Assembly: GCA_036961355.1 (NCBI GenBank)
Contig: JBALVL010000012.1
Coordinates: 5,954-69,953 of the forward strand
DNA from: Motiliproteus sp.
GTDB lineage: Bacteria > Pseudomonadota > Gammaproteobacteria > Pseudomonadales > Balneatricaceae
Direction of reading: 5' to 3'
Length of the DNA: 64,000 bases
A program made the translations under genes and the position numbers. Below the pieces are notes generated by a model. It worked only from the letters and a program-made list of their open reading frames with translations. It searched no databases and had not been told where the DNA came from. This document shows positions 40,559-63,110 of the stretch, piece by piece (the stretch's first letter is position 1; each line of letters starts with the position of its first letter).

Positions 40559-40582
40559 CCTAATAAAAAGAGGTAGCCTGCT

Positions 40583-42554: not shown

Positions 42555-42715
42555 TTTTTTGGTAGAGAGGGGGATTGGATAGTCGTTGAGTCGGCTGTTC
42601 AATCCTGCCGCCGAATCGATTACCAACTCCATTAATTAATCCAACTGCGCCATGACGTGAGCGCGGTTGTTATGGCCCGTGTGATACAGAGCCTACAGGG
42701 ATAAGGAAGACAGTT

Positions 42716-43624: not shown

Positions 43625-43634
43625 GGAGCGGGTT

Positions 43635-44900
43635 ATGTCTGTACTGTTAGGCTGTATTGCCGACGATTTTACCGGTGCCACCGACCTGGCCAGTTTTCTG
43701 GTCGCCTCGGGGATGCGTACCGTCCAGTTGATGGGGGCTCCCACCGAGCCGGTTGATCTGAGCGAAGCCGATGCGGTGGTGATTGCGCTTAAATCACGTA
43801 CCCAGGCCACTCAGACTGCCGTGGCCGATTCGCTGCAGGCGCTGTCGTGGCTACAGCAGCATGATTGCCAGCAGTATTATTTCAAGTATTGCTCGACCTT
43901 CGATTCAACCGCGCAGGGCAATATCGGACCGGTGGCCGATGCGCTGTTAGCCGCGCTGGGTGAAACCTTTACCATCGCCTGTCCGTCGCTGCCGGTGAAC
44001 GGCCGGACGGTCTATAACGGTTACCTGTTTGTTAACGGCGTGTTGCTCAATGAGAGTGGCATGGAACATCATCCGCTGACGCCGATGCGCGACGCCAATC
44101 TGGTCCGGGTGCTGGGCGCGCAGACCGACGCCAAGGTCGGGCTGGTCGATCATACGGTGCTTGCCCAAGGGGTGGAATCCACCCGGCAGCAGTTGACTCA
44201 GTTAGCACAAGAGCACCGTTATGCCATCGTTGATACGCTGGACCGTGATGATCTGGTCACCATCGGTCACGCCTGTAGTGAGCTGAAATTGCTCACCGGC
44301 GGCTCCGGTCTGGCGATCGGTTTGGCCGATAATTTCGAAGCCAAGGGGCTGTTTAGCAAAAGCCTGAATTCGGCGCAGCTCAGTCCGGTTGCTGGTGATG
44401 CCGTGGTGTTGTCCGGCAGCTGCTCCAAGGCGACCCGCGAGCAGGTAGCGGTATTCCAGGCCGATCATCCCTCATTAAAGATCGATCCGTTGTTGCTGCA
44501 TAACGGCCTGCAGAGCGCCGAGCAGGTCGAACGCTGGTTTATTGAACACCGCGATCAGGGCCCTGTGTTGATCTATGCCACCGACCACCCCGATGCGATC
44601 AAACGCAGTCAGGCCGATCTGGGGGTAGAGGCCGCCGGTGAGTTGGTCGAGCAGCTAATGGCCGATGTGGTAAAGCGTCTGGATACGCTGGGTGTGACAA
44701 AATTTATCGTAGCGGGCGGCGAAACCTCGGGATCGGTGGTGCAGGCACTGTCGGTTTCTGCGCTTAAGATCGGACCCAGTATCGCTGCTGGCGTGCCGCT
44801 GACCCAGACCTTGGGTAGCGCACCAAAATTGCTGGCGTTGAAATCGGGCAACTTTGGTGACAAAGATTTCTTCGCTAAAGCGTTGGAGATGATGCCATGA
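43635..44900 (+). CDS. otnK: Four-carbon acid-sugar kinase (3-oxo-tetronate kinase, YgbK/OtnK family)
   Basis: N-terminal LGCIADDFTGATDLA motif of the DUF1537/four-carbon acid sugar kinase family; 421 aa. Confidence 0.8.
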   Translation: MSVLLGCIADDFTGATDLASFLVASGMRTVQLMGAPTEPVDLSEADAVVIALKSRTQATQTAVADSLQALSWLQQHDCQQYYFKYCSTFDSTAQGNIGPVADALLAALGETFTIACPSLPVNGRTVYNGYLFVNGVLLNESGMEHHPLTPMRDANLVRVLGAQTDAKVGLVDHTVLAQGVESTRQQLTQLAQEHRYAIVDTLDRDDLVTIGHACSELKLLTGGSGLAIGLADNFEAKGLFSKSLNSAQLSPVAGDAVVLSGSCSKATREQVAVFQADHPSLKIDPLLLHNGLQSAEQVERWFIEHRDQGPVLIYATDHPDAIKRSQADLGVEAAGELVEQLMADVVKRLDTLGVTKFIVAGGETSGSVVQALSVSALKIGPSIAAGVPLTQTLGSAPKLLALKSGNFGDKDFFAKALEMMP

Positions 44901-45580
44901 GTGCCCGTCAGGTAGCGGTTGATGAAGATCGATTGCGTGAACGGATCGCCTATCATGGGCGCTCGATTTTCGAGCGAGGTCTGACCGCCGGCAGTTCGGG
45001 CAATATCAGCGTTCGTCTCGACGATGGTTGGCTGATGACCCCGACCAACTGCTGTCTGGGTAATCTCGATCCGGCCGATATCTCCCGCCTCGACGCGCAG
45101 GGTGTGCTGTTGTCGGGTAAAGCGCCGTCCAAAGAGTTTTTTCTGCACCAGGCCTTTTTGAGTAAACGCCCTCAAGACGGTGCGGTGGTGCATCTACATT
45201 CGACCTACGCCACCGCAGTTTCCTGCCTGCCCGATATCGATCCGATGGACGTTTTGCCGCCGCTAACGCCGTATTCGATCATGCGTTTCGGCAAGGTTGC
45301 GTTGAATCCATACCACCGCCCGGGTGATAAAAAATTGGGCGATGAGATCTTAAAAGTGGCCGCCGATTACAGTGCGGTGTTGCTGTCCAACCATGGCCCG
45401 ATTGTCGCGGCCAAGGATTTGGACGCGGCGGTCTATGCCGCCGAAGAGCTGGAAGAAACCGCCAAACTGTTTATGTTGCTGCAAGGCCAGCGGCCGCGTT
45501 TGCTTAATGCTGAGCAGGTAGCCGAGTTGAACCAGACGTTCGTTAACAAGGGGGCCGATGATGCCAAATCTTGCTGCTAA
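44897..45580 (+). CDS. otnC: Class II aldolase/adducin-family decarboxylase (3-oxo-tetronate 4-phosphate decarboxylase, YgbL/OtnC)
   Basis: GSSGNISVRL and VVHLHS metal-binding motifs; overlaps the otnK stop. Confidence 0.8.
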   Translation: MSARQVAVDEDRLRERIAYHGRSIFERGLTAGSSGNISVRLDDGWLMTPTNCCLGNLDPADISRLDAQGVLLSGKAPSKEFFLHQAFLSKRPQDGAVVHLHSTYATAVSCLPDIDPMDVLPPLTPYSIMRFGKVALNPYHRPGDKKLGDEILKVAADYSAVLLSNHGPIVAAKDLDAAVYAAEELEETAKLFMLLQGQRPRLLNAEQVAELNQTFVNKGADDAKSCC

Positions 45581-46343
45581 TTTATCGATGCTGTTTACCG
45601 AGCTGCCATTCCTGGAGCGGTTTGAGGCCGCCTCTAAGGCTGGCTTTAGCGCGGTCGAGTATCTGTTCCCGTACGACTATGATCCCGAGCTATTGCAGCA
45701 GCTGTTGGCGCGACACAACCTGACCCAGGCGTTGTTTAACGCGCCTCCTGGCGACTGGGATGCCGGCGAGCGCGGCATCGCCTGTCTGCCGGGCCGCGAA
45801 GCCGAGTTTGAGCAAGGTATCGACCGTGCGCTGGCCTATGCGGCGGTGCTGGGTAACCAGCGTATCCACATCATGGCGGGATTGCTGCCGGTAACCTTGA
45901 GCGCAGATGAGGCGAATATTTGTTATGTGCGTAACCTGCGTTACGCCGCGCACAAGGCGCAAGAGGTCGGTATCACACTGCTGGTTGAGCCGATCAACAA
46001 CGTCGATATGCCGGGTTACTTTGTAAATTATCAGGAACAGGGCGTCGCCCTGATCGGCTTGATCGATGAACCCAATGTCCGGCTGCAGTTTGACTGCTAT
46101 CACTGTCAGATGATGCAGGGTGACGTTGTCGCTACCTTTAATAAACTGTTGCCCTATATCGGCCATGTTCAGATCGCCGGTGTACCGGGACGGCATGAGC
46201 CCGATGTGGGCGAACTCAATTACCGTTATATCTTTGATGCGTTCGAGGCGGCCGGGTATCACGGTTACGTCGGTTGCGAATACAAACCCAAAGCGTCGAC
46301 CGTTGACGGACTGGCTTGGCTTGACCGACTTGCGCTGCGATAG
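45558..46343 (+). CDS. otnI: Hydroxypyruvate-isomerase-family TIM-barrel (2-oxo-tetronate isomerase, YgbM/OtnI)
   Basis: AANLSMLFTELPFLERF N-terminus and VQIAGVPGRHEP; 261 aa. Confidence 0.8.
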   Translation: MMPNLAANLSMLFTELPFLERFEAASKAGFSAVEYLFPYDYDPELLQQLLARHNLTQALFNAPPGDWDAGERGIACLPGREAEFEQGIDRALAYAAVLGNQRIHIMAGLLPVTLSADEANICYVRNLRYAAHKAQEVGITLLVEPINNVDMPGYFVNYQEQGVALIGLIDEPNVRLQFDCYHCQMMQGDVVATFNKLLPYIGHVQIAGVPGRHEPDVGELNYRYIFDAFEAAGYHGYVGCEYKPKASTVDGLAWLDRLALR

Positions 46344-46361
46344 GCCGGATCGGGGCTGACG

Positions 46362-46883
46362 ATGTTAAACACACCCTTTTCCATCCTGGTGATGGGCGTC
46401 TCCGGCTCGGGCAAGTCCCATGTCGGTCGCCTGCTTGCCGAGCGCTGCCAGGCGAAATTTATCGATGCCGACGATTATCACAGTGCTGCCAATGTCGCTA
46501 AGATGGCGCGTCTTGAGCCGTTGGACGATGCCGACCGGGCCGATTGGCTGGCAACACTGGCCGAGCTGTATCGTCAGTCGCGTGCCGACGGTGAGCCGCT
46601 GGTGATCGGCTGTTCGGCGTTGAAAGCTAGCTACCGCGGGCTGTTGCGCGGTGGTGCGCCGGACCTGCGTATTGTCTACCTTGACGGCGACTACGAGCTG
46701 TTGAGCCAACGTCTGGCCAGTCGCCAGAGCCATTTCTTTGGCGGCGACTCAATGCTACGCAGCCAGCTTGAAACACTGGAACCGCCGCCGCAAAACGAAG
46801 CGATATGGTTGAGTATCAGCCAACCTCCCTTGCAGATAGTCGAGCAGGCCGTTACGGCTCTGACCGCCTCTTTTAATAGCTAA
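46362..46883 (+). CDS. gntK: Gluconokinase-family (GntK/IdnK-type) sugar-acid kinase
   Basis: ILVMGVSGSGKSHVG P-loop, FIDADDYHSAANVAKM, CSALKASYR; 173 aa. Confidence 0.85.
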   Translation: MLNTPFSILVMGVSGSGKSHVGRLLAERCQAKFIDADDYHSAANVAKMARLEPLDDADRADWLATLAELYRQSRADGEPLVIGCSALKASYRGLLRGGAPDLRIVYLDGDYELLSQRLASRQSHFFGGDSMLRSQLETLEPPPQNEAIWLSISQPPLQIVEQAVTALTASFNS

Positions 46884-47050: not shown

Positions 47051-47146
47051 ATTGGACGGCAGACGCCCGAGAGTTGAACAGAAAAGATTATGGATTGAGG
47101 TTGTCGATGTTAAGCCTGGAAAGAGATGGCTCCTCGAGCAGGACTC
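47051..47146. repeat. Direct repeat copy A (96 bp, identical to 58401-58496); its last 20 nt are a copy of the tRNA-Asn 3' end
   Basis: Base-by-base comparison: attggacggcagacgcccgagagttgaacagaaaagattatggattgaggttgtcgatgttaagcctggaaagagatggctcctcgagcaggactc is present at both sites, with mismatches immediately outside. Confidence 0.9.
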
Positions 47147-47311
47147 AAGTCGTATCACCAGTTACTTAACTGAGTTTTAGTCTGAAAGTGGAGGTGCGGT
47201 AGCCCGTATAAGTGCTTTCATGACTGGATCTCTCATGACTTCCCCGTACGACGCATCAGCGCAAACAACCTATGAGGCGTGCAGCAGAGCGCCGAATCTG
47301 GCGCCATGAAT

Positions 47312-49297
47312 TCATCGTGGGCAGAGGTATTCGTCATCGGGCAGCTGCAGCGCATGCTGCTTAATTTTACGGTGCATGGTTGATCTGCTGATTCCCATCG
47401 CTTTTGCGGCCCGGGTGACGACCCAGCGATGTTCGACCAGAGCTTGCAGAATAAGCTCTTTTTCCGAGGTGGCTGGTGTCGTGCCAAGGGGCAGATTGTG
47501 GGGCAGGGAGGCAACACGCGACGGCACCGGAGGGTGGTCGTCGAATATGCTGGACTGGGCTCGGAGCTCTTCGGGGAGGTCGTCGATTCCGATCTGTTCG
47601 CCGTCGCACAGGCACAGGGCTAACTGGAGTACGTTTTTCAGTTGTCGGATGTTGCCGGGCCAGTGGTAGCTCAGCAGTAGATTCTGCGCCGGTGGCGCTA
47701 AGGTGATTGACCTCTCTAGGCCCTCTTCATGACAGATCAGATCGATCAGTTTACTGAACAGAGCCAGCTTATCCTGTCGGTCGCGTAGAGCGGGCAGAGG
47801 GATGTCGACACCGCTAATGCGATAGTAGAGGTCTTCGCGGAATTTTCCCTGAGCCACATAATCTTTCAGGTTACGGTGAGTGGCACAGATAACATGCAGA
47901 TCAATCTTGACCGGTTTTACCTGGCCAAGAGGAGTGATCTCGCGTTCTGCCAGCACCCGCAGCAGTCGAGCTTGCAGTTCGAGTGGCATATCTCCGATCT
48001 CATCGAGAAACAGAGTGCCTCCTTCGCTGGCCTGAATCTTACCGGTTTTGCCGCCCTTCAGACCGCCGGTGAAGGTGCCAGAGCCGTATCCGAAGAGTTC
48101 GCTTTCGATCAATGATTCGGGAATGGCGGCGCAGTTCAGGGTGACGAAGGGTTTGTCACACCGGGCGCTGCTTTGGTGAATGGCCTGTGCCCAGACCTCT
48201 TTGCCGGTGCCCGTTTCTCCCCGCAACAGGATGCTGATATCGTGATTCAGTACGCGGTGGCAAATAAGTGCTTTTTGCTGCAGTGCTTCCTCCGAGCCCG
48301 CCACCTGTAGCAGCGGTGAATCGGCAATCTCCCGTAGGCAGGCTGTTTTGCTCTGGCTGGCGGGGGGATCAACCCTGACTGGTTGTGACTGCGGCGCTTG
48401 GTAGGTCAGGCAAAGTGGTGCCGACAGCTTGTTACCCGTTATCAGGACGGGGTTACAGCCTGCAGCCACTACGCGCTCCAGTGTTTCGCCAGTCAGCTCC
48501 TCGAGGGATTGATTGACGATCTGGGTGCGTTGTTGCAGCCCCAACAACATCAAGGCCGCGCTGGTGGCTGCGCTGATACGACCGCCACCATCAACAGCAA
48601 GCAGGCCGGTAAAGCCATTGCCAAAGGTGGGGCTAGCGGCGGATATCGCTACCAGATAAAGCTCGGCGTAGGCTCTTCTGAACAGCACCGCTTCAATCTG
48701 ATCTGCGGTCTCACATACCAGATGCAGTGCCAACCCCTGTGCCAATTTTCGGCCCTGCGCAAAAGTCGATACATCGATAGTGCCGAACGGTGTTCCGTCT
48801 GGGGCAATCAACGGTGCGGCGGAACAGCTAAAGCGTTTGAGCGACTCGCCGAAATGCTCATCGGCGTAAACGGTTAGTGCCCGTCCCGTTTCCAGGCAAG
48901 TGCCGACGCCATTGGTGCCGATTACGGACTCGGTCCAAACAGACCCATGCTGCAATCCTTTCGAAGCGAGGTCGCGAACTACGCTGGAATCGAAATGGCT
49001 CTGTACCACGATCCCATTGGCGTCGGTAACCAAGATGCAGTAGCCCGCATCTTTAGCGACCACTCGCAGGTGATCAAAGATAGGTGACGTATGAATCAGA
49101 AATTCATCGAGGGGTTCTTTGCATCTTTTCACCTCGAATTCACTGAGGCGCGGGGGGGTGGTAGATCGATTGGGGTCTAAATGGTATTGATCCTGGCAGC
49201 GCTGCCACGAACTCTGAATGGATGATTCTCGGCATGGATTACCGGCCGCAAAGGTATTAGGCGGGGGCGGTCGCGGGGTGCCGTAAGGCTTAGCCAT
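47312..49297 (-). CDS. Sigma-54-dependent transcriptional activator (AcoR-like; GAF-type sensor + AAA+ + Fis HTH)
   Basis: GETGTGKE Walker A, GAFTGA-loop equivalent ELFGYGSGTFTGG, C-terminal HTH RWVVTRAAKAMGISRSTMHRKI; 661 aa. Confidence 0.9.
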   Translation of the reverse strand: MAKPYGTPRPPPPNTFAAGNPCRESSIQSSWQRCQDQYHLDPNRSTTPPRLSEFEVKRCKEPLDEFLIHTSPIFDHLRVVAKDAGYCILVTDANGIVVQSHFDSSVVRDLASKGLQHGSVWTESVIGTNGVGTCLETGRALTVYADEHFGESLKRFSCSAAPLIAPDGTPFGTIDVSTFAQGRKLAQGLALHLVCETADQIEAVLFRRAYAELYLVAISAASPTFGNGFTGLLAVDGGGRISAATSAALMLLGLQQRTQIVNQSLEELTGETLERVVAAGCNPVLITGNKLSAPLCLTYQAPQSQPVRVDPPASQSKTACLREIADSPLLQVAGSEEALQQKALICHRVLNHDISILLRGETGTGKEVWAQAIHQSSARCDKPFVTLNCAAIPESLIESELFGYGSGTFTGGLKGGKTGKIQASEGGTLFLDEIGDMPLELQARLLRVLAEREITPLGQVKPVKIDLHVICATHRNLKDYVAQGKFREDLYYRISGVDIPLPALRDRQDKLALFSKLIDLICHEEGLERSITLAPPAQNLLLSYHWPGNIRQLKNVLQLALCLCDGEQIGIDDLPEELRAQSSIFDDHPPVPSRVASLPHNLPLGTTPATSEKELILQALVEHRWVVTRAAKAMGISRSTMHRKIKQHALQLPDDEYLCPR

Positions 49298-49413
49298 CAG
49301 ACTTTCTCCTCCCCGGACAACAAGCTGAACGGGGGTTTTGTAATTATTATAATAACCCCATTAAACAGGATAGTTCGTACACATAGCAAGCGGCGGGCGT
49401 AACGGCACTCCGG

Positions 49414-49430
49414 TGCGACACACCGTCGCA
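49414..49430. promoter_or_regulatory. Candidate enhancer (UAS) palindrome TGCGACACACCGTCGCA
   Basis: 15 of 17 positions match TGCGACACAGTGTCGCA at 51981-51997. Lies about 155 bp upstream of a sigma-54-like element at 49583. Confidence 0.45.
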
Positions 49431-49582
49431 GCGTGGTTGAGTCAGACTGTCGCAGTCTTGTGTTTTTAGGCGGACATGGCCATCCAACAGGTCACCGATC
49501 ACGGTATTTCAATTCACCCTGCCCACGTAGAAATCTGGTTTATTAGCCTCCGTTGACTTTATCCGCGACTCATTCTACGAGT

Positions 49583-49597
49583 TGGCGCAGTTCTTGA
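49583..49597 (+). promoter_or_regulatory. Weak sigma-54-type promoter candidate (TGGCGC-N5-TTGA)
   Basis: TGGCGCAGTTCTTGA, about 70 nt upstream of ATG 49666. The -24 GG is present, but the -12 element is GA rather than GC. Confidence 0.35.
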
Positions 49598-49665
49598 TAG
49601 GTGCCTTCTGTCGGTATCGACCTGGTGCCGGATACTCCAATAATAAAATCTCGGAGATTCATATT

Positions 49666-50268
49666 ATGAGAAATAAACGAGGACATATTTTAGGCTCGAC
49701 TCTGGTCGGCATAATCATGTCGCTGTTGGTGGCTTTGCCCAGTCAAGCCGGTATCCCAGGGATGCGTGGTTCTCAGCATTTAGGGTTTACCGTTCCAAAC
49801 GCCCAGCAGGCGGTAGACTTCTTTGTCGATGTGATTGGCTGCGAGGCTTTTTACACGATAGGCCCCTTCGGCCCCTTCAACGACGACTGGATGACCGACA
49901 ACCTCAATGTAAATAAAGATGCGGTGATCAAGGTTGCTCATCTGTTGCGTTGTGGTAACGGCCCGTCGCTGGAGATCTTCGAATATAGCTCGCCGGACCA
50001 GCAGACCGCACTGCCTAAAAACAGCGATATTGGTGGCCATCATCTGGGGTTCTATGTGGATGATATGACAGCCGCCGTGAAGTACCTCGAAGACAACGGT
50101 GTCAAGGTACTGGCCAAGCCGCATACCTTTACCGATACCGGCATGGAGGGACTGACTTGGGTCTATTTCATGGCACCTTGGGGGATGCAATTGGAGATCG
50201 TGAGCTACCCCTATGGCCAGGGATATGAGCGTACAACCGGTCGGCGCATGTGGGATCCCCGCTACTGA
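49666..50268 (+). CDS. Secreted VOC-family (glyoxalase/bleomycin-resistance/dioxygenase fold) protein
   Basis: Start at MRNKRGHILGSTLVGIIMSLLVALPSQA (signal peptide, GGAGA RBS). VOC motifs HLGFTVP...GHHLGFYVDD...QLEIV. Confidence 0.8.
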   Translation: MRNKRGHILGSTLVGIIMSLLVALPSQAGIPGMRGSQHLGFTVPNAQQAVDFFVDVIGCEAFYTIGPFGPFNDDWMTDNLNVNKDAVIKVAHLLRCGNGPSLEIFEYSSPDQQTALPKNSDIGGHHLGFYVDDMTAAVKYLEDNGVKVLAKPHTFTDTGMEGLTWVYFMAPWGMQLEIVSYPYGQGYERTTGRRMWDPRY

Positions 50269-50336
50269 TCTGCACAATCACCATCGATACGTGATGGGAC
50301 TCCCCCCATCACGTTACTTAGCGGGGAGTCGATCTT

Positions 50337-51629
50337 ATGTTGGCACACAGTTTATCTGGGACCGGTTCGTTAACGGATAACAAACTACTGAACGTCGTCT
50401 TTAGCCTCCTTATATGGGCAGCGGCGACCCAAGCCCAAGCCCACTTCACCCATTTTGAACCGCGTATTATTCATGTGTCGCCGCAGCAAGGCGGTGTGCA
50501 GCTATTACTGCGGATGCCGTTACCGCTGCTATTGTTGGATGAAGACTGGCAGGGCGGCGACAGCGGTCAGGCTATCCCGTTTACACAGCGGGAGCGGGTA
50601 GGTGATCAATGGGTCTACCGGATTGATCCCGCCGACTTCGAACACCGCTTTGCAGAATTTGAACAACGGGTGTTGGCGGGATATACCCTGCATCGAGAAG
50701 GACAGCGACTCGAGGGCCTATCGTTGACCCATGTGCATATCTTCAACAGCGACCAACGCAAACCGTTTAGTACATTGGCCACAGCCGAGGCAGCCTTTGG
50801 TGTCGATAAGGTGCAGGTAGATGCTGGCGTGATCGAGCTGTTCGACAGCGGTATCGACCTGCGGTTATTTATCCCGGCTATCTCACTGGCGGGTTCATTT
50901 ACCATCGATAGTGATCTGGGCATCCGCCTGAACGCGATCGAGCGGCTAGCTAATATCCTCCAGGTGCATGATGGTCGCGGAGATTCTACGACCTTTAGTT
51001 CTATCGGTACGTTGCATACCACCTTTGCTGCGCAAGGGCATTCGATGGCATTCATCGGCCAGCTTAAAAGTGGCGTCATCCATATTCTGGCGGGGCTCGA
51101 TCATGTGCTGTTTGTGCTATTGATCGCTCTGGCTTCGGCCAATTGGTTGCAGACGCTGCAACGGGCGACTGCGTTTACCCTCGGGCACTCCGTGACTCTA
51201 GCGTTAGGGATGATCGGTTACGTCCCGGTAGGAAACTGGTTTATCCCCCTGATCGAAACCCTGATTGCGCTTACTATTCTCTACGGAGGGATCATGTTGG
51301 CTTACAAGCAGCAGCACCGTTTTGGCCTGTTGACGATGCTGTTTGTGGGGCTGATTCACGGATTCGGATTTTCCATTGTATTAAGCGAACTGGTATCTCA
51401 AACGGGAGGGTTAAACGTACTTAGCCTGATTGCGTTCAACCTCGGTATCGAGTTCGGCCAATTGGCAATCTATGCTGCCGTTGTGCTGTTGCTTTTGGCT
51501 TACCATCGCATGGCCTTCTTGCGGCATTTGGACTTGCCGGTATTCGTTTCGGCGGGTGCGGTACTGGTTTCCGCAAGCTGGATCTACGAGCGCGGCGGCC
51601 TGCTGTTGAGTGAGCTGCAATCCCTGTAG
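50337..51629 (+). CDS. HupE/UreJ-family membrane protein with a ~230-aa N-terminal periplasmic extension
   Basis: Signal peptide, then a soluble region, then a C-terminal polytopic part with HILAGLDHVLFVLLIAL (HupE/UreJ GxDH motif) and GHS...GLIHGFGF. Confidence 0.65.
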   Translation: MLAHSLSGTGSLTDNKLLNVVFSLLIWAAATQAQAHFTHFEPRIIHVSPQQGGVQLLLRMPLPLLLLDEDWQGGDSGQAIPFTQRERVGDQWVYRIDPADFEHRFAEFEQRVLAGYTLHREGQRLEGLSLTHVHIFNSDQRKPFSTLATAEAAFGVDKVQVDAGVIELFDSGIDLRLFIPAISLAGSFTIDSDLGIRLNAIERLANILQVHDGRGDSTTFSSIGTLHTTFAAQGHSMAFIGQLKSGVIHILAGLDHVLFVLLIALASANWLQTLQRATAFTLGHSVTLALGMIGYVPVGNWFIPLIETLIALTILYGGIMLAYKQQHRFGLLTMLFVGLIHGFGFSIVLSELVSQTGGLNVLSLIAFNLGIEFGQLAIYAAVVLLLLAYHRMAFLRHLDLPVFVSAGAVLVSASWIYERGGLLLSELQSL

Positions 51630-51980
51630 CCCTGCGCCCACTGACAATAACACCCACAGCCCTCGCGGTAATATCGAATTCAGCCCCGCGGTAATGCCGA
51701 ATAAGGGGGCTGTGGTGCTGTTTTCTAGCTTCCACTTCTGCCCAACCCTCGTCGGTCAATGCTTGCTGTTATGTCGGTGCAAGCCGCGCGTGTTAGTGCC
51801 TGACACACCGCTTAACGTTTACCCCCTCTGTCTGTGCTCGCCTAAGTTGTTGGGCCTTTATTGCCGCTTGCCCAATGGCCTTCTTTTTTATGACGGATGC
51901 CACAGGAGGCAACGCTCAGTCCGCCCTTTTATCGCGTTGAGGGTGCGACTGTCTCGCCGCGACACTCTGTTTCAGCGGGC

Positions 51981-51997
51981 TGCGACACAGTGTCGCA
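51981..51997. promoter_or_regulatory. Candidate enhancer (UAS) palindrome TGCGACACAGTGTCGCA
   Basis: Perfect GCGACAC-A-GTGTCGC palindrome about 65 bp upstream of the sigma-54 -24 element. Related half-sites GCGACTGTCTCGC and GCGACAC lie at 51944-51965. Confidence 0.5.
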
Positions 51998-52058
51998 TGA
52001 GCTATTGATCTGTCGATTAAATATATACAAACTCTTTAATATCAATTATTTGGGTTGT

Positions 52059-52074
52059 TGGCACGGGGGTTGCT
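52059..52074 (+). promoter_or_regulatory. Sigma-54 promoter (TGGCAC-N5-TTGCT)
   Basis: TTGGCACGGGGGTTGCT matches the -24/-12 consensus, 77 nt upstream of the E1-alpha ATG. A sigma-54 activator is encoded nearby. Confidence 0.7.
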
Positions 52075-52150
52075 ATATCCAATTAGAAGTTGGTGATTAC
52101 GCCCTTGGATTGGACAGGTATCTATAAATAAAATAAGAGGATTAGTTTTC

Positions 52151-53137
52151 ATGAAACCCAGCAAAGAGCAAAAAGTGTGGATGTACGAGCATATGCTTGT
52201 CAGTCGTTATTACGAAGAGGCCATCGAAAAGATCTACATGGAGGGTAAATCGCCCGCCTTCAATATGGCAGACGGTCCGATACCGGGAGAGATGCATCTC
52301 TCCAATGGGCAGGAGCCGTGTGCGGTCGGCGTCTGCGCCCACCTGACGGCGGAGGATATCGTGACCTCAACCCACCGTCCTCACCATGTAGCCATCGCCA
52401 AGGGAGTGGACCTCGACAAGATGACCGCCGAGATCTTTGGCAAGCAGACTGGCCTTAGTGGGGGCCGCGGCGGCCATATGCATATCTTCGATGCCAATGT
52501 GAACTTCTCCTGCTCCGGCATTATCGCGCAGGGGTTGGGGCCAGCGGCCGGTGCGGCCTTGTCGCGGCAGCTGCAGAACAAGCCCGGCGTGGCTGTAGCT
52601 TTCCTAGGTGAAGGGGCTGCCAACCAGGGGGCATTTCACGAAGCGCTCAATCTCGCCTCGGTGTGGAAGTTGCCAGTGGTGTTCGTGATCGAGGACAACG
52701 GCTGGGGTATTTCTGTCTCCAAGAAGGACTCCACTGCAATCGAGAGCAATGCGCGGCGAGCGGCAGCCTACGGCATGCCCGGACACCGCGTGGCCAACAA
52801 CGACCCCATCGCTGTCTTTGCGGCAGCCGGTGAGGCGATTGCTCGTGCCCGTGCTGGTGACGGCCCGTCCCTGTTGGAGATCGAAACCTCCCGTCTGGCA
52901 GGACACTTTATGGGTGACGCTGAGGGTTACCGACCCGAGGGCGAAAAAGATGCTCTGTTCGCCAAGGATCCGATCCCCGCGATGCGCGAATTACTGGCGG
53001 CTGAAGAGGGCTGGAGCGAAGACGATGACGCGAAGATGACCGCCAAGGCGCATCAGCGGGTAGATAAGGCTATCCAGTTTGCCCGCGATAGCGCGTACCC
53101 AGAGCCTGCTGAAGCGCTCGAAAAGGTGTTCGTCTGA
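52151..53137 (+). CDS. acoA: TPP-dependent dehydrogenase E1 alpha subunit (acetoin/2-oxoacid dehydrogenase type)
   Basis: GEGAANQGAFHEALNLASVWKLPVVFVIEDNGWGIS TPP-binding motif; 328 aa. Confidence 0.88.
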   Translation: MKPSKEQKVWMYEHMLVSRYYEEAIEKIYMEGKSPAFNMADGPIPGEMHLSNGQEPCAVGVCAHLTAEDIVTSTHRPHHVAIAKGVDLDKMTAEIFGKQTGLSGGRGGHMHIFDANVNFSCSGIIAQGLGPAAGAALSRQLQNKPGVAVAFLGEGAANQGAFHEALNLASVWKLPVVFVIEDNGWGISVSKKDSTAIESNARRAAAYGMPGHRVANNDPIAVFAAAGEAIARARAGDGPSLLEIETSRLAGHFMGDAEGYRPEGEKDALFAKDPIPAMRELLAAEEGWSEDDDAKMTAKAHQRVDKAIQFARDSAYPEPAEALEKVFV

Positions 53138-53196
53138 GACGATAACAATCGATTCCTTATTTCGTTTCCTGTGTCGGGATCAATGGAGAATTAACA

Positions 53197-54216
53197 ATGA
53201 GTGACGTAAAACAAAAAGAACGCAAGCTGACGATTGCCCGCGCTATGGCCGAGGCTGTGTCGCAAGAGATGCGCATCGATGAGCGGGTCTTCGTGATGGG
53301 AGAGGATATCGGTCCTTTGGGCGGCGTATTTGGTAATACTCGCGGCCTGTTCGAAGAGTTTGGTGCCAGTCGTGTGCGTGATACGCCGATTTCGGAAACC
53401 GCCTTTATTGGTGCTGCCGTAGGTGCGGCGGCTGATGGTATGCGGCCGGTCGTTGAATTGATGTTCGTGGATTTCTTTGGCGTCTGCATGGACGCAATCT
53501 ATAACCTGGCGGCCAAAAACAGCTACTTCTCTGGCGGGCATATCCCAGCACCGATGGTACTGATGACCTCCACTGGCGGCGGCTACAGCGATGCCGGGCA
53601 ACACTCCCAGTGTCTGCACGGCACCTTTGCCCATTTGCCGGGAATGAAGGTGGTCGCCCCCTCCAATGCTTACGATGCCAAGGGGCTGATGATCGCCGCC
53701 ATACGGGATCAAAACCCAGTCATCTTTATGTTCCATAAGGCGCTGCAAGGTATGGGTTGGCTCGGTACTGAACAGGGTGCCATCAACCATGTGCCCGAAG
53801 AGAGTTACTGCGTTGAAATCGGCAAGGCCAAGGTGGTTCGTGAGGGTTCCGATGTCACTATCGTCGGCATCACCTCCGGTGTTCATCACGGCCTCAAGGC
53901 CGCCGATCAACTTGCCGAGCAGGGCGTCAGCGCCGAAGTGCTGGATCTTCGCTCGCTGGTGCCGCTGGACCGTGAAAGCGTGCTGCGTTCGGTAGAAAAA
54001 ACCGGTCGCCTGATCGTGGTCGATGAAGATTATCAAAGCTATGGCATGAGCGGCGAGATCATCGCCACGGTTGCTGAGAGTGGCCTACCGCTGCATGCCG
54101 CACCTCAGCGTGTGGCCTATCCGGATATCCCGATTCCATTCTCTCGCCCGATGGAGCAATGGGCGCTGCCCAACGCTGCCAAAATTGTTCAAGCCTATCA
54201 ACAGATGAAGGGGTAG
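53197..54216 (+). CDS. acoB: Dehydrogenase E1 beta subunit
   Basis: VFVMGEDIG...RVRDTPISETAFIGAAVGAA...; 339 aa, directly after the E1 alpha gene. Confidence 0.9.
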   Translation: MSDVKQKERKLTIARAMAEAVSQEMRIDERVFVMGEDIGPLGGVFGNTRGLFEEFGASRVRDTPISETAFIGAAVGAAADGMRPVVELMFVDFFGVCMDAIYNLAAKNSYFSGGHIPAPMVLMTSTGGGYSDAGQHSQCLHGTFAHLPGMKVVAPSNAYDAKGLMIAAIRDQNPVIFMFHKALQGMGWLGTEQGAINHVPEESYCVEIGKAKVVREGSDVTIVGITSGVHHGLKAADQLAEQGVSAEVLDLRSLVPLDRESVLRSVEKTGRLIVVDEDYQSYGMSGEIIATVAESGLPLHAAPQRVAYPDIPIPFSRPMEQWALPNAAKIVQAYQQMKG

Positions 54217-54219
54217 CAG

Positions 54220-54453
54220 ATGAGTACCGATATTGTGATTGCACTGGATCTTTGGGAAGAGGATGAGGACGCGGTGATCACCACCTGGTTGGCCAGCGAT
54301 GGGGGCTTGGTCGAAGAGGGGGATGCGGTGGCAGAGGTGATGGTGCAGAAAGCGCAGCACGAAATACTCGCCTCTGCCTCGGGTACCTTGGCAATCGTCA
54401 AAGATGCCGATGAAACGGTCAGCAAAGGTGACCTTATTGGGCGCATCAGCTAA
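54220..54453 (+). CDS. Stand-alone lipoyl-attachment (biotin/lipoyl-type) domain protein
   Basis: 77 aa. VAEVMVQKAQHEILASASGTL gives a lipoyl-lysine context. Starts 4 nt after the E1 beta stop. Confidence 0.7.
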   Translation: MSTDIVIALDLWEEDEDAVITTWLASDGGLVEEGDAVAEVMVQKAQHEILASASGTLAIVKDADETVSKGDLIGRIS

Positions 54454-54474
54454 CCCCCAGCAGCGGAGTACTTT

Positions 54475-55158
54475 ATGAACATGATTGAAACACAGGATCA
54501 GGCTATTCCCCTGAAGGGGATGCGGGGCATGATCGCCGACAACATGCGTCGGAGTTTGGATGAGGCGGCGCAGCTCAGCCTCCATGCCGACTGCGACGTG
54601 ACCGCGTTGTTGGACCACAAGGGCCAGTTAGCCGCGCAGGAGATCAATGTCTCGGTGGAGGACCTGTTGTGCGAATACATCGTCAAGGCGCTGCAACGGC
54701 ATCCGGCGCTGAACGGCCGAGTCGAGGATAGGAATGTGCACCTCAGTCAGTCGATCCACCTCAGCGTAGCGATCGCTCTACCCGGCAATCTGCTGGTTGC
54801 TCCCACCATATTTAACGCGGACGAGTGCACATTATTGGAGCGTTCCGAGGCGCGTAAGGAGCTGATTAAGCGCGCCAAGGTAGGCAAGTTGAGTGTGGCC
54901 GAAATGACCAAAGGGACCTTTACGGTCAGCAACCTAGGCTTGTCCCGGGTGCGTTATTTCACCCCGATTATCAATATCCCCCAGATTGCGATTATCGGCA
55001 TCGGTCAGACCGTTAAGCGCCCCTGTGTCATGGCGGATGACAGTGTCGTAGTGCGGTCAATGATGGGGCTGTCGCTGACCTTCGACCACCGTGCGGTAGA
55101 TGGCGGACCAGCGGCGGATTTCCTGAGTACGCTGTGCGAGTTGATCGAGCAGGTATAG
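54475..55158 (+). CDS. 2-oxoacid dehydrogenase E2 acyltransferase, catalytic domain only
   Basis: 227 aa beginning directly with the catalytic domain. Active-site LSLTFDHRAVDGGPAADFL. No lipoyl or subunit-binding domain. Confidence 0.85.
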   Translation: MNMIETQDQAIPLKGMRGMIADNMRRSLDEAAQLSLHADCDVTALLDHKGQLAAQEINVSVEDLLCEYIVKALQRHPALNGRVEDRNVHLSQSIHLSVAIALPGNLLVAPTIFNADECTLLERSEARKELIKRAKVGKLSVAEMTKGTFTVSNLGLSRVRYFTPIINIPQIAIIGIGQTVKRPCVMADDSVVVRSMMGLSLTFDHRAVDGGPAADFLSTLCELIEQV

Positions 55159-55161
55159 GCG

Positions 55162-55932
55162 ATGAACTCCCTGATTAGAATCGACACAACGCAGTCATCT
55201 GTTGCCATTCAGGAGCCGGTGCTGTTGTCGCCACAAGAGGGTTTGCAGCAGGAACTAGAGCTGCTCGACCTAGTGGCGAATAACTGTCTCGAATATGGCT
55301 TTCGAATCTGGCGGTGTCGGCGTGCGATGGTGGTTCCCACATCCGTCAGTCGTAATCTCGGGTTCGAACTGGCATCGCGTGTATTGGCGGAAAAGGGCTG
55401 GCCTGTAATCATCCGTAAAACCGGTGGCGATTTGGTGCCTCAGTCTCCCGGGTTGCTCAATGTTTCCCTTGTGTTCCGGCAGCGCCGGCGCAAAGGCAGC
55501 ATTGACGCAAGCTATCAGGCGCTTTGCCGTCCCTTAATCGCCGCCTTTAAATCATTGGGCATCGATGCTTATTGCGCCTCTGTGCCAGGGGCCTTTTGTG
55601 ATGGTGATTACAACCTGGTTGTCGACGGTCAAAAACTGGCGGGAACGGCGCAACGCTGGCGTCGGATCACAGCGAGTGATGATGGCGACGGTGACTTTGC
55701 GGTGCTGGTGCATGCGGTAATCCTGTGCCGCGATGAGTTGCCCGAATTATGGGGTATCACTAATGACTTCTATCGTCATTGCAGTATTGATCGATATATC
55801 GAATACACCAAGCACGTTTCGGTTTCAGAGTTGTTGTCAGAACCTAAAGCTATTTCAGATCAGACGCTGATGTCTCATCTATCTAAAGTAATTTCCGAGA
55901 AAATAAAATTGCATTTTGATGTGTTGGAGTAA
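55162..55932 (+). CDS. Lipoate-protein ligase (LplA/BPL-LPL catalytic domain) family protein
   Basis: RKTGGDLVPQSPG and GQKLAGTAQRW resemble LplA/LipB-family catalytic motifs. Starts 4 nt after the E2 stop. Confidence 0.7.
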   Translation: MNSLIRIDTTQSSVAIQEPVLLSPQEGLQQELELLDLVANNCLEYGFRIWRCRRAMVVPTSVSRNLGFELASRVLAEKGWPVIIRKTGGDLVPQSPGLLNVSLVFRQRRRKGSIDASYQALCRPLIAAFKSLGIDAYCASVPGAFCDGDYNLVVDGQKLAGTAQRWRRITASDDGDGDFAVLVHAVILCRDELPELWGITNDFYRHCSIDRYIEYTKHVSVSELLSEPKAISDQTLMSHLSKVISEKIKLHFDVLE

Positions 55933-56016
55933 TCCAGTAATTGAGGATTATAACCCCGTGAAAATTTTTTAAATGACGTTGGTCCTGCACTAATAAGAAA
56001 ATATTGAGAGGCTGTT

Positions 56017-56598
56017 ATGAATAAAAATAAATATCAAAACAAAATTCAAAATATTGAACCCACTGAGGTCGATTCACCCTCATTTAGTCGAAGAAACTTC
56101 TTAACCAAAGGCTCCATGGTTTTAGCGGGAGCGGGTGTGTTCACACTGGGTGTGGGTGGTGCGCTCGTTTCCCCATCGGCCTGGGCCGCCAGTGCCGTTG
56201 GCGACCATGCCAGCGAGACGCTGCTGGCCATGGCGCGTGATATTTACCCGCACGATACGCTGGAGGATAAATATTATACCCAGGTGTTGTTACCTATGGG
56301 TGAAAGTGCCGCCACAGATAAAGACCTGGCGACCCTGCTTAAGGAAGGGACCAGCGAGTTGGATAGACGCACCAATGCCCGATTCGGCAAGGGTTATCTC
56401 AAGGTAGAGCAAGAAACTGACCGTGTCGAAATTCTTCGCGAGATGGAGTCTTCGGCTTTTTTTCAGAAAATTAAAGGCGCTTTGATGATGGGTATTTATA
56501 ACAACCCCGAACTTTGGCCAAGGTTTGGGTTTGGTGGTTCGTCGTGGGAACAAGGCGGATACATTGACCGCGGCTTCGATAAGAACGACTGGATCTGA
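56017..56598 (+). CDS. Gluconate 2-dehydrogenase subunit-3-family small subunit (Tat-exported)
   Basis: Twin-arginine signal SRRNFLTKGSMVLAGAGVF...AWA; 193 aa. Precedes the GMC flavoprotein. Confidence 0.8.
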   Translation: MNKNKYQNKIQNIEPTEVDSPSFSRRNFLTKGSMVLAGAGVFTLGVGGALVSPSAWAASAVGDHASETLLAMARDIYPHDTLEDKYYTQVLLPMGESAATDKDLATLLKEGTSELDRRTNARFGKGYLKVEQETDRVEILREMESSAFFQKIKGALMMGIYNNPELWPRFGFGGSSWEQGGYIDRGFDKNDWI

Positions 56599-56621
56599 TA
56601 ATAATAAGAGAGGAAGTAACA

Positions 56622-58202
56622 ATGGCTAATAAATTCGATTTAAATGATGACAGCCTGGTCGTTATTATCGGTTCGGGTGCGGGTGGCGGAACGCTTGCCA
56701 ATGAACTGGCGCAAAAAGGTATTCGTTCGGTGGTGCTCGAAGCCGGTAAACGCTTCAAGATGGAAGACATTGAGAACGACGAATGGAAGATGTTTGGCAA
56801 GATCTCCTGGCTGGATAAACGTAATTCTGAGGGGCCTGCCCGTCTGGCCAAAGATTTTCCTCATCTACCGGCCTGGATTGTGAAAGGCGTTGGTGGAGCA
56901 ACAATGCACTGGGCTGGCGTAGCGATGCGCTTCCAGGAGCACGAGTTCAAGATGAAAACGACCAATGGCACGATCCCCGGTGCGAACGTGCTGGATTGGC
57001 CGATTGATCTGAAAGAGCTGGCCCCTTACTACACTTTGGCCGAGGAGAAGATGGGGGTTTGCGGTACCGAGACCACCGGGATGCCATTCCACGCTAAGAG
57101 CAGTCACTACAAAGTGGTAGCAGAAGGGGCAAAACGCATTGGTGCCAAGTGTGAACAAGCTAACCTGGCGATCAATACGGAGAGCCGCGACGGGCGGCCT
57201 GCCTGTCAGGTTACTGGTTTTTGTATGCAGGGTTGCCGTGTTGGCGCCAAGTGGTCCACCATGTACACCGAAATTCCCAAAGCCGAGGCTACCGGTAATT
57301 GTGAAGTGCGTCCTCAGTCCATGGTGTTGCGAATTGAACACGATAAAACAGGTAAGGTGACCGGGGTGCTGTACGCCGATAAAGACGGCAATCAGCAGTT
57401 GCAAAAAGCCCGTGTTGTTGCCGTTGCAGGTAACTCCATCGAATCACCGCGGATGCTGCTGAATTCGGCGTCCAATCTGTTCCCCGATGGTTTGGCAAAC
57501 TCTTCCGGCCAGGTCGGTCAGAATTATATGACCCACACGACGGGTGGTGTTTACGCCGAATTTGAGAAGCCCGTGCACATGTACAAGAGCACCGTCGTTC
57601 CGGGTGTCGTTAAAGAGTGGCAAGATAATGATCCTTCTCGCGGCCACTATGCCGGTTATGAGCTTGAAATTCTTCACCTGGGGCTGCCCTTTATGTCAGC
57701 CTTTCTAAATCCAGGCGTCAGCGGCTGGGGTCGGGAGGTGTCAGAATCGCTACAGAATTACGATAAGATGGCCGGATTTTGGATCTGCGGTGAAGATATG
57801 GCCGTAGAGTCGAACAACATCACCCTGCACGGTTCGGAGAAAGACCAGTACGGTCTGCCCATTCCTGTGGTACACAAGACCGACCATATCAACGATACCC
57901 GCATGCGCAATCATGCCTACAAGACCTCGAAGGAGCTGTTCGAGTCTGTCGGCGCGCTGAAAGTTAATAACCTGCCAGCCTATCCCGCAAGTCACAACAT
58001 GGGCACCAACCGCATGAGTGAACGTGCACGTGACGGTGTCGTCAATAAATGGGGACAGAGCCACGATGTGAAAAACCTGTTTGTCTCTGACGGCAGTCAG
58101 TTTACCAGCAGCGGGACTGAGAACCCCACTCTGACCATTGTTGCGCTGACCATCAGGCAGGCTGAATTTATTGCTAAATCGATGAAAGAAAAACTTATCT
58201 AA
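56622..58202 (+). CDS. GMC-family FAD-dependent oxidoreductase (large subunit)
   Basis: VVIIGSGAGGGTLANELA FAD motif, C-terminal GMC region ...NLFVSDGSQFTSSGTENPTLTIVAL. Confidence 0.9.
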   Translation: MANKFDLNDDSLVVIIGSGAGGGTLANELAQKGIRSVVLEAGKRFKMEDIENDEWKMFGKISWLDKRNSEGPARLAKDFPHLPAWIVKGVGGATMHWAGVAMRFQEHEFKMKTTNGTIPGANVLDWPIDLKELAPYYTLAEEKMGVCGTETTGMPFHAKSSHYKVVAEGAKRIGAKCEQANLAINTESRDGRPACQVTGFCMQGCRVGAKWSTMYTEIPKAEATGNCEVRPQSMVLRIEHDKTGKVTGVLYADKDGNQQLQKARVVAVAGNSIESPRMLLNSASNLFPDGLANSSGQVGQNYMTHTTGGVYAEFEKPVHMYKSTVVPGVVKEWQDNDPSRGHYAGYELEILHLGLPFMSAFLNPGVSGWGREVSESLQNYDKMAGFWICGEDMAVESNNITLHGSEKDQYGLPIPVVHKTDHINDTRMRNHAYKTSKELFESVGALKVNNLPAYPASHNMGTNRMSERARDGVVNKWGQSHDVKNLFVSDGSQFTSSGTENPTLTIVALTIRQAEFIAKSMKEKLI

Positions 58203-58226
58203 TCTCCCGCCCTGCAGTTCTCTTTT

Positions 58227-58249
58227 GGCGCCTTAATGGCGCCTTTTTT
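58227..58249 (+). terminator. Rho-independent terminator
   Basis: GGCGCC-ttaat-GGCGCC followed by TTTTTT, 25 nt after the GMC stop. A-rich on the 5' side, so potentially bidirectional. Confidence 0.7.
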
Positions 58250-58400
58250 ATGCTTGATAAGATATCTATAGGTGACGCACATCGCGACAGTTTGCTGCGC
58301 TAGGGGGAGTATCGAGTCGAATTTATTGGAGTAAGTTACCCGAATGTGTATACCGGAAGGGGATTGCCAGCGCCTATAACTCACATGAGAACACGGCAGA

Positions 58401-58496
58401 ATTGGACGGCAGACGCCCGAGAGTTGAACAGAAAAGATTATGGATTGAGGTTGTCGATGTTAAGCCTGGAAAGAGATGGCTCCTCGAGCAGGACTC
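58401..58496. repeat. Direct repeat copy B (96 bp); overlaps the 3'-terminal 20 nt of tRNA-Asn
   Basis: Identical to 47051-47146 at a constant offset of 11,350 bp. Confidence 0.9.
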
Positions 58497-58552
58497 GAAC
58501 CTGCGACCAATAGATTAACAGTCTACTGCTCTACCAACTGAGCTATCGAGGA
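58477..58552 (-). tRNA. tRNA-Asn (anticodon GUU)
   Basis: Reverse complement is UCCUCGAUAGCUCAGUUGGUAGAGCAGUAGACUGUUAAUCUAUUGGUCGCAGGUUCGAGUCCUGCUCGAGGAGCCA. It folds as a cloverleaf by hand (7-bp acceptor, GCUC/GAGC D stem, GUAGA/UCUAU anticodon stem, CU-GUU-AA loop, GCAGG/CCUGC T stem, encoded CCA). Confidence 0.95.
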
Positions 58553-58605: not shown

Positions 58606-58681
58606 TGGCTCCTCGAGCAGGACTCGAACCTGCGACCAATAGATTAACAGTCTACTGCTCTACCAACTGAGCTATCGAGGA
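58606..58681 (-). tRNA. tRNA-Asn (anticodon GUU), second identical copy
   Basis: Same 76-nt sequence as 58477-58552, separated by a 53-bp spacer containing the hairpin CTTGGTTaagaTAACCAAG. Confidence 0.95.
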
Positions 58682-62385: not shown

Positions 62386-63110
62386 GTGATCTTAAAAAAA
62401 TTCTCAGTCGTGTCGATCAAGTCGACGCCGAGGACTTCACACTGGCCGCCAACAAGCTGCTGGTTAGCCAGTTCTTGTACGCCGACAAACCTTCGCACCG
62501 GCCGCATTACTTTTTGATCACTAACCATATTGGTTATTTCAGTAACCTTTTTGAGGCGATCGGCTGGTCACTGACCCATCAGACGGACGAATCCTATGTC
62601 GGACTGATCCCCAAAGGCGAAGAGCGTTACCTGCGGTTGCGGCTCGACGAATCGCTGTTCCTGCTGTGTCTGCGCCAGCAGTACGAGCAGAAGCTGGAGA
62701 ATTTTGACGTCGAGGGCGGCAAAGCCTTTATCGCCTCTGATGATCTGTTGCGGCTGTACGAGAGCCTGACGGCGAAAGAGATCCCCAACGAGACTCGCTT
62801 TAAAGAGATTCTGAGTCTGTTTAGTCGCCACGGTGTGATCGAAAAAGGTAAACCGGCGGAGACCGAACCCAAGAATATTCCGTTGATGATCAACCCATCG
62901 ATCCGGCAGGTGGTGGTCGAGGATTGGGTCACGCAGCTCGAAGGGCTGGCCGACACGAATGAGGCGGAAGAGAGCGACGAGCAAGATGCGCTGGAGCAGG
63001 AGCAGCTAGCTCAGCAGGACGCAGAAACTGCGCCACCGGCTGTTGCAGCAGCGTCAGCGTCTGAGGCTGCTGAACCAGCGGCAGAAACAGAAGCGGAGAC
63101 CGCCCAATGA
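62379..63110 (+). CDS. jetB: Wadjet/Mks system second component (JetB/MksE-like, DUF4194-like)
   Basis: 243 aa with an acidic Ala/Glu-rich tail. Overlaps the upstream stop by 7 nt and the downstream start as ATGA. Confidence 0.55.

Follow-up and report, generated by a model that had tools for sequence, protein, structure and literature searches.

How does a complete catabolic regulon come to lie between two perfect copies of a 96-bp sequence, one of which ends inside an intact transfer RNA (tRNA) gene, when it carries no recognisable recombinase of its own? We address this question for a 64-kb stretch of contig JBALVL010000012.1 from Motiliproteus sp. (GCA_036961355.1), hereafter the window, whose positions serve as coordinates throughout. 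The element under study, which we call the islet, occupies positions 47147-58400 and is predicted to encode a pathway for the breakdown of a small carbon compound. Our best reading is that it is a recombinase-less element flanked by attachment (att) sites and resembling the cis-mobilizable elements (CIMEs) of Streptococcus, and it falls in a known class, that of decayed or CIME-like tRNA islands. For the more specific proposal, that an integrase, since lost or acting in trans, made the islet at a tRNA-Asn gene, we consider the evidence about evenly balanced.

The geometry of the repeats is the starting point. The sequence at 47051-47146 recurs at 58401-58496 in direct orientation, with 96 of 96 bases identical, an offset of 11,350 and mismatches at the first bases beyond both ends; a repeat search and a direct string comparison both confirm the exact repeat, offset and mismatched edges that the initial annotation had described. 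A looser repeat search stretches the match to 104 nt at 97%, with five of the eight additional bases on the left side matching and all three mismatches being transitions, an extension that is not significant. Local alignment of the 400 nt beyond each repeat end scores no better than shuffled sequence, i.e. no homology was detected outside the repeats. On the minus strand ARAGORN, with which Rfam agrees, places a pair of identical tRNA-Asn(GTT) genes. The right repeat is made up of 76 nt of spacer downstream of the first of these together with the last 20 nt of that tRNA (58477-58496; GAGTCCTGCTCGAGGAGCCA). These 20 nt start at position 57 with the T-loop bases GAGT and take in the 3' strands of the T-stem and the acceptor stem, the discriminator and the terminal CCA. 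The left repeat holds an orphan tRNA-Asn 3' fragment, lying downstream of the intact gene and in the same orientation. Both the overlap of the right copy with the tRNA end and the orphan fragment in the left copy, as first proposed, are upheld by ARAGORN, Rfam and the sequence itself. The features concerned are as follows.

47051..47146, unstranded: left 96-bp direct repeat, attR-like; native tRNA-Asn downstream spacer of 76 nt plus the displaced 20-nt 3' fragment
47127..47146, minus strand: orphan tRNA-Asn 3' fragment, T-loop nt 57 to CCA, by sequence match
58401..58496, unstranded: right 96-bp direct repeat, attL-like, overlapping the intact tRNA-Asn 3' end
58477..58552, minus strand: intact tRNA-Asn(GTT) copy 1, the target gene (ARAGORN, Rfam)
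58606..58681, minus strand: tRNA-Asn(GTT) copy 2, unoccupied, identical to copy 1 and in tandem 129 bp upstream of it

The tRNA 20-mer is present three times in the window, in the two tRNAs and in the orphan, with a chance expectation of none. The orphan fragment, which was not called by tRNA or RNA-family searches, lies within a 428-bp intergenic gap between a gntK-like gene (ending at 46883) and the regulator gene of the islet (ending at 47312). Rfam found no known RNA families in the repeats or in the arms that adjoin them, and no third, degenerate att copy, the sign of a tandem array, was found in the window.

The second line of evidence comes from another genome. A search with the regulator of the islet returned as its nearest non-self homologue a protein with 88% identity from a metagenome-assembled genome (MAG) labelled Halopseudomonas sp. 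(GCA_036960405.1; contig L133, part of JBALWS010000024.1), while the homologue in a congeneric Motiliproteus MAG is only 65% identical. Contig L133 aligns with the window at 47252-58252 in a single collinear block of 11,010 bp with 88.2% identity and identical gene order, and identities of the encoded proteins are 88% for the regulator, 95% for the VOC protein, 90% for the HupE-like protein, 95% for E1 alpha, 97% for E1 beta and 97.7% for the GMC oxidoreductase (these proteins are described below). Beyond the block the two sequences are unrelated and the breakpoints are sharp: homology fades at about 47213-47252 on the left and stops at about 58255 on the right, just past the terminator. The flanks in L133, which are lower in guanine-plus-cytosine (GC) content than the block, hold an ABC substrate-binding gene and dus on one side and a 105-amino-acid (aa) open reading frame (ORF) and a CHASE5 histidine kinase on the other. 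This copy surfaced through the regulator search alone, and a homologue search with the GMC protein of the window did not return it. Within Motiliproteus, the MAG contigs L034 and L035 carry a divergent version (69-74% at the nucleotide level; regulator 65%, HupE 62%) with a different gene order and at another locus, where the VOC-HupE pair follows the GMC gene and a porin gene and the module lies beside tRNA-Leu(CAA). More widely, many marine Gammaproteobacteria have homologues of these genes, with the order shuffled and the surroundings differing. Because the L133 block is collinear yet stands in an unrelated context, and because the divergent Motiliproteus version occupies another locus, the comparison of genomes shows the 11-kb cargo to be a horizontally transferred unit, evidently sitting in different places in different genomes.

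The two copies of the cargo also provide a yardstick for the age of the repeats. Mostly non-coding bins of the alignment between the window and L133 have 80-82% identity, and the 76-nt spacer part of the repeats has no differences, where approximately 14 would be expected for repeats dating back to the split of the cargo copies. For this reason we infer that the duplication of the repeats, or their last homogenisation, is much younger than the divergence of the cargo. Because the islet is host-like in composition and its repeats are identical, the data further suggest that it came recently, from a donor of similar composition that was probably a close relative, and an ancient acquisition appears less likely.

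How could such an insertion have taken place? The islet ends in two short arms between the cargo shared with L133 and the repeats.

47147..47238, unstranded: left arm without L133 counterpart, about 65-100 bp, from the alignment with L133
58256..58400, unstranded: right arm without L133 counterpart, about 115-145 bp, from the alignment with L133

Joining the ends in silico gives a junction of right arm, 96-bp block and left arm of about 300 bp, similar in size to a typical attP of about 250 bp (PMC4383910). We favour a Campbell-type single crossover, in which a circle would have entered the chromosome at the 3' end of the first of the tandem tRNA-Asn genes. The circle would have comprised the 11.0-kb cargo (about 47240-58255) and the junction of about 300 bp (a 145-bp arm, a 96-bp block identical to the host and an arm of 65-90 bp), and the chromosomal target would have had the order gntK, spacer, tRNA-Asn. 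Recombination within the 96-bp block would restore the tRNA and push the native 3' fragment and its spacer towards gntK, leaving two perfect repeats. The catalyst would be a tRNA-Asn-specific tyrosine integrase, either provided in trans by another element or lost; an enzyme of this kind is favoured because the identity block begins at a known crossover sublocation, the T-loop, and because the islet shows everything that the Islander filters look for except the integrase, namely an intact tRNA gene with a cognate 3'-terminal fragment, downstream and in the same orientation, a size within 2-200 kb and a fragment lying outside any conserved coding domain. T-loop/T-stem-region crossover sites account for 1836 of 3919 Islander islands (PMC4383910). 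A block starting at T-loop position 57 is compatible with the Islander sublocations (anticodon loop, T-loop and T/acceptor junction), the crossover itself not being placeable within the 96 bp from one genome. The circular intermediate, the involvement of an integrase, the recent timing, any current mobility and the att function of the repeats are all things that we infer. Of the tRNA-targeted island with attL/attR signature proposed in the initial annotation, the geometry and the transfer as a unit (the 11,010-bp block at 88% in L133) stand, and the recombinase is missing.

Several results weigh against an integrase-made islet. Pfam and NCBIfam scans of the islet ORFs found no integrase, excisionase, transposase or conjugation domains, which bears out the earlier remark that an integrase, excisionase or transposase could not be seen, and the same domains were absent from about 35 further ORFs scanned across the window (about 46 in total), a scan that took in the larger ORFs rather than every ORF. 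The Islander filter that the islet fails is the presence of a tyrosine integrase gene within or overlapping it. Six-frame translations of the islet end regions, viewed by eye and outside the domain-library scans, yielded only fragments of at most 66 aa. A tblastn search of the window with the tRNA-Asn-associated integrase of the viral contig L050 gave no match, and the reconstructed junction has no more arm-type repeats, direct or inverted, than shuffled sequence. An integrase has no need of 76 of the 96 identical nucleotides, which are spacer and fit homologous recombination equally well. It is this spacer content, rather than the length, that makes the block unusual; the initial annotation had regarded the repeat as long for an att core, a view that has to be corrected in that the att identity blocks described reach about 250 bp (PMC10111431). 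The composition of the islet is indistinguishable from that of the host, so that it is not marked as foreign: GC is 0.539 compared with 0.542 in the rest of the window and the tetranucleotide distance lies within about one standard deviation, meaning that the comparison of islet and flanks suggested at the outset ended in a match. L133 has no tRNA, flanking repeats or integrase in the visible 1-2 kb per side, and no tRNA-derived direct repeats surround the modules of L034/L035 and of a further contig, L073, within their 21-kb loci.

The search for an unoccupied site belongs to the same side of the balance, as the collections scanned, from which the species is otherwise absent, yielded neither an empty site nor a circular junction nor another occupied site. 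The gntK-like protein has its best match among GTDB species genomes at 69% (a Competibacteraceae MAG), with no synteny, no nearby tRNA-Asn and no empty site, and a metagenome scan with a 22-mer from the repeat gave 0 matches and no empty site. On the other side of the islet, the next relatives of the EamA protein have about 70% identity; no relative with at least 90% identity was found for the flanking proteins, and the Tara contigs recovered show a different context without a tRNA. The congeneric contig L047 keeps the EamA-Xni-JetABC order (Xni 83%, JetA 81%) and has a NUDIX gene and a hydrolase gene left of EamA, with no tRNA-Asn and no module; synteny ends left of EamA, a point that counts in favour of the insertion, but L047 is not a clean empty site. 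IMG/VR holds no matches for 22-23-mers of the arms or a 24-mer of the repeat spacer, and the tRNA 20-mer occurs there mainly in phage tRNA arrays and in one unrelated integrase-linked fragment. On the viral contig L050 (2395-3728), a tRNA-Asn 3' fragment of about 44 nt reaching the anticodon loop lies directly beside a 420-aa tyrosine integrase; this is the att site of an unrelated phage that targets tRNA-Asn at the anticodon-loop sublocation.

Among the alternatives, the one that survives best is a RecA-mediated Campbell integration without any site-specific recombinase, which we regard as a tentative but credible possibility. A circle carrying the 96-bp host segment, looped out for example from a conspecific chromosome, would enter an islet-free cell through one homologous crossover, and the repeats would now drive RecA-dependent loss, amplification and re-integration. 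In E. coli, efficient RecA recombination has a minimum of about 25 bp, and the perfect repeat of 96 bp is well over this length. The greater part of the repeat (76 nt) is lineage-specific spacer and not conserved tRNA, neither a recombinase nor arm-type sites were found, and the host-like composition suggests a donor from the same lineage. However, this explanation leaves open how the first repeat-module-repeat arrangement originated, it accounts neither for the T-loop boundary nor for the match to the integrase signature (a 3' fragment, downstream and direct), and an efficient means of transfer would be required for a circle that lacks replication functions.

It is also conceivable, though in our view unlikely, that the islet is an active recombinase-free metabolic cassette. 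Here, the regulon would be permanently coupled to the attP-like junction of about 300 bp with its captured 96-bp tRNA-Asn end, and would shuttle between cells and tRNA-Asn copies by means of a hijacked integrase or RecA alone. If true, the islet would represent a CIME-like hitchhiker in marine Gammaproteobacteria with catabolic cargo in place of resistance or virulence genes.

The remaining explanations fare worse. A transposon or insertion sequence-bounded unit is not indicated, as we found neither a transposase domain nor terminal inverted repeats above chance and the duplication measures 96 bp. The module might instead be ancestral beside tRNA-Asn, with the left 96-bp copy a local duplication produced by a repair patch or left over from a third tandem tRNA-Asn unit of which the rest was replaced or deleted. 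The tRNA-Asn genes are indeed tandemly duplicated here, the composition equals that of the flanks, and the module abuts a tRNA 3' end without repeats elsewhere (tRNA-Leu in L034/L035 and tRNA-Val in L073). We nevertheless consider this account improbable: the same 11-kb unit stands in the unrelated L133 context with sharp breakpoints, the spacer between tRNA copies 1 and 2 differs from the 76-nt flank in the repeat, the repeats are far younger than the divergence of the cargo, and chance would have to supply the T-loop end, the direct orientation and the exact far end of the module. Most improbable of all is an assembly artefact, in which a separate molecule or the path of a second strain was threaded through the shared 96 bp: the source is evidently a MAG, the 100% matches of EamA and the regulator being confined to Motiliproteus sp. 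MAG proteins of a 122-kb contig, and a misresolved de Bruijn graph node yields perfect repeats around an insert, but the path could only have been built if real reads cover both new junctions (from orphan fragment into islet and from islet into spacer), Pfam and NCBIfam show no replication or partition genes with which the islet could persist as a free replicon, 96 bp is short enough for reads or read pairs to span, the tandem tRNAs 129 bp apart having been resolved, and even under a misresolved assembly the att-like relationship is real.

Among the known systems closest to the islet, the tRNA islands catalogued by Islander and TIGER (PMC4383910) share with it an intact tRNA and a displaced, direct, downstream 3' fragment that bound the island exactly. 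The islet likewise has a block start in the T-loop/T-stem region, a size in the 2-200 kb range, metabolic cargo and a 96-bp block no longer than those on record (up to about 250 bp, PMC10111431). It differs from these islands in having no integrase or remnant of one, a block made up mostly of non-tRNA spacer, no compositional anomaly and no detectable arm-type sites. The asn-tRNA islands of Enterobacteriaceae, such as the Yersinia High-Pathogenicity Island and ICEKp1, use the 3' end of the multi-copy tRNA-Asn genes as their site, bring adaptive cargo and have known immobilised derivatives; they carry a P4-like integrase and repeats of about 17 bp. The islet resembles them in sitting at a multi-copy tRNA-Asn 3' end, with no sequence relationship. 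CIMEs are known from Streptococcus, where for example CIME-L3catR3 is associated with ICESt3 (PMC6323972, PMC5704250), and are mobilised by accretion with a cognate integrative and conjugative element (ICE) (PMC6323972). CIME-like in the islet are the retention of attL and attR with integration and transfer genes lost or never present, and the expected mode of movement, which would proceed through accretion and co-excision with the integrase of a cognate element. In contrast to CIMEs, which belong to Firmicutes, relate to identified ICE families and have a known cognate integrase, the islet is from a marine gammaproteobacterium with no cognate ICE or integrase known, and its repeats far exceed the usual length of CIME att cores. 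If an integrase does act in trans, the CIME concept would be widened past the Firmicutes; otherwise the islet is one more decayed tRNA island.

In either case, the islet indicates that a complete, self-regulated catabolic pathway can move between genera and settle in a tRNA gene without a recombinase of its own. Such elements escape Islander, ICEfinder and other island finders that depend on an integrase, and metabolic gene flow in marine bacteria may be under-counted. Perfect direct repeats of 96 bp at a distance of 11 kb are open to deletion and amplification through RecA, and the repeats predict an unstable pathway in this population, subject to loss or amplification through recombination.

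Turning to the cargo, annotation relied on Pfam and NCBIfam scans, translations and motif searches. The 11 ORFs of the islet are regulatory, metabolic or without assigned function, and the enclosed DNA constitutes a complete sigma-54 regulon, with an AcoR-like activator, two -24/-12 promoters, enzyme genes and a terminator. That the regulon is self-contained, with its own activator, two sigma-54-type promoters and a terminator at 58227 near the edge, had been recognised from the start and holds, the promoters being conserved in L133. The features are listed in order of position.

47312..49297, minus strand: AcoR/MimR-type sigma-54 activator with GAF, AAA+ sigma-54 interaction and HTH_8 domains (Pfam/NCBIfam)
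49414..49430, unstranded: imperfect palindrome TGCGACACACCGTCGCA, candidate activator-binding site (upstream activating sequence, UAS) upstream of the first promoter, partly conserved in L133
49583..49598, plus strand: sigma-54-type -24/-12 element TGGCGCAGTTCTTGAT, the weaker one, upstream of the VOC gene and identical in L133
49666..50268, plus strand: VOC/glyoxalase-family protein of 200 aa with N-terminal signal peptide, true start ATG 49666 (Pfam/NCBIfam, translation)
50337..51629, plus strand: HupE/UreJ_2-family membrane protein of 430 aa (Pfam)
51981..51997, unstranded: perfect palindrome TGCGACACAGTGTCGCA, candidate UAS upstream of the second promoter (motif search)
52059..52074, plus strand: consensus sigma-54 promoter TGGCACGGGGGTTGCT upstream of E1 alpha (motif search)
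52151..53137, plus strand: E1 alpha of a thiamine pyrophosphate (TPP)-dependent 2-oxoacid/acetoin dehydrogenase (Pfam/NCBIfam)
53197..54216, plus strand: E1 beta (Pfam/NCBIfam)
54220..54453, plus strand: stand-alone lipoyl-domain protein of 77 aa (Biotin_lipoyl in orthologues)
54475..55158, plus strand: E2 acyltransferase of 227 aa, catalytic domain only (Pfam/NCBIfam)
55162..55932, plus strand: LplA/LipB-type lipoyl/octanoyl transferase-like protein (Pfam/NCBIfam)
56017..56598, plus strand: small subunit with twin-arginine signal (SRRNFL); orthologues carry Gluconate_2-dh3 (weak)
56622..58202, plus strand: GMC-family FAD oxidoreductase, large subunit, 526 aa (Pfam/NCBIfam)
58227..58252, plus strand: intrinsic terminator, GGCGCC-TTAAT-GGCGCC (58227-58243) followed by T6 (terminator search), where L133 homology stops

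At the second promoter, the L133 counterpart reads TGGTATGAGGGTTGC and retains the GG-N10-GC spacing. The small subunit and the GMC protein form a two-subunit GMC dehydrogenase for which export by the twin-arginine translocation (Tat) system is predicted from the SRRNFL signal. The islet shares with aco operons under AcoR-type activators the GAF/AAA+/HTH activator, the -24/-12 promoters, the TPP-dependent E1 alpha and beta and the E2 acyltransferase. It differs from them in its split E2, its dedicated LplA-like enzyme and the lack of an E3 gene, and in the additional Tat-exported GMC dehydrogenase pair and the secreted VOC protein with its HupE-like partner, both locations being predictions. 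All NCBIfam matches of the cargo, those of the E1 proteins included, are under equivalog cut-offs, and a literature search on the pathway found nothing specific. The added GMC, VOC and HupE genes suggest, as far as gene content can tell, a pathway different from or extended beyond acetoin.

The split E2, with a lipoyl protein of 77 aa and a separate acyltransferase of 227 aa that has only the catalytic domain, recurs together with the LplA/LipB-like gene behind it in L034-L040 and in L133 and is conserved across genera; none of the genes in the module encodes an E3. The VOC gene with signal peptide is always paired with that of the 430-aa HupE/UreJ_2 protein (49666-51629 in the window; 13772-15745 in L034/L035), and the place of the pair in the module varies by genome. 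The HupE/UreJ_2 family is linked to nickel and cobalt uptake, and the pair may consist of a periplasmic enzyme that depends on a metal and a transporter dedicated to supplying it. An ORF at 51610-52008 is probably not a gene, being without domains and having 65% identity over 74 aa with L133 inside a block otherwise conserved at 88-98%. Just downstream of the regulator gene, TCATGACT occurs twice, 15 nt apart, at 47218-47240, and L133 has CCATAACTGCGT twice (reverse complement, about 1700-1730); this short tandem motif at the left end of the L133 homology is within chance expectation.

A third close relative of the cargo is found on L053 (Ga0326597_10355211), a metagenome contig of 1645 bp and too short for context, whose E1 beta is 96% identical to that of the islet at the amino acid and 85% at the nucleotide level. 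Carriage of the module on plasmids was considered and set aside, since only GMC homologues of about 65% identity, on alphaproteobacterial megaplasmids, came to light. In two other genomes, homologous modules lie directly against the 3' end of an opposite-strand tRNA gene, namely tRNA-Leu(CAA) at 15958-16042 in L034/L035 and tRNA-Val(GAC) at 12720-12794 in L073. The contigs L034 and L035 (16100-21581) share the same module and differ just past tRNA-Leu(CAA): L034 has a Tn7-like element there, with TnsD/TniQ, an AAA_22 TnsC-like protein, a large TnsB-like ORF and three copies of AATAAAGATTGTGAAT at 16202-16329, and L035 has gcvP-dsbB. By gene content, the two contigs seem to be polymorphic for the insertion of a Tn7-like transposon near the tRNA.

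The left flank of the islet in the window encodes chromosomal functions, namely GAPDH, pyruvate kinase, a methyl-accepting chemotaxis protein, a TRAP transporter, a four-carbon acid-sugar kinase cluster and the gntK-like kinase. The sugar-acid cluster at 37885-46883 comprises LacI, TRAP DctPQM, a 3-hydroxyisobutyrate-dehydrogenase-like protein, a four-carbon acid-sugar kinase, a class II aldolase, a xylose-isomerase-like TIM protein and the gntK-like kinase, and may itself be acquired DNA. The right flank holds EamA/RarD, Xni and a Wadjet JetA system; this anti-plasmid system (JetA, JetB and a JetC-like protein) lies right of EamA-Xni at 60892-64000 and has about 76% nucleotide identity to L047 at 4367-10024.

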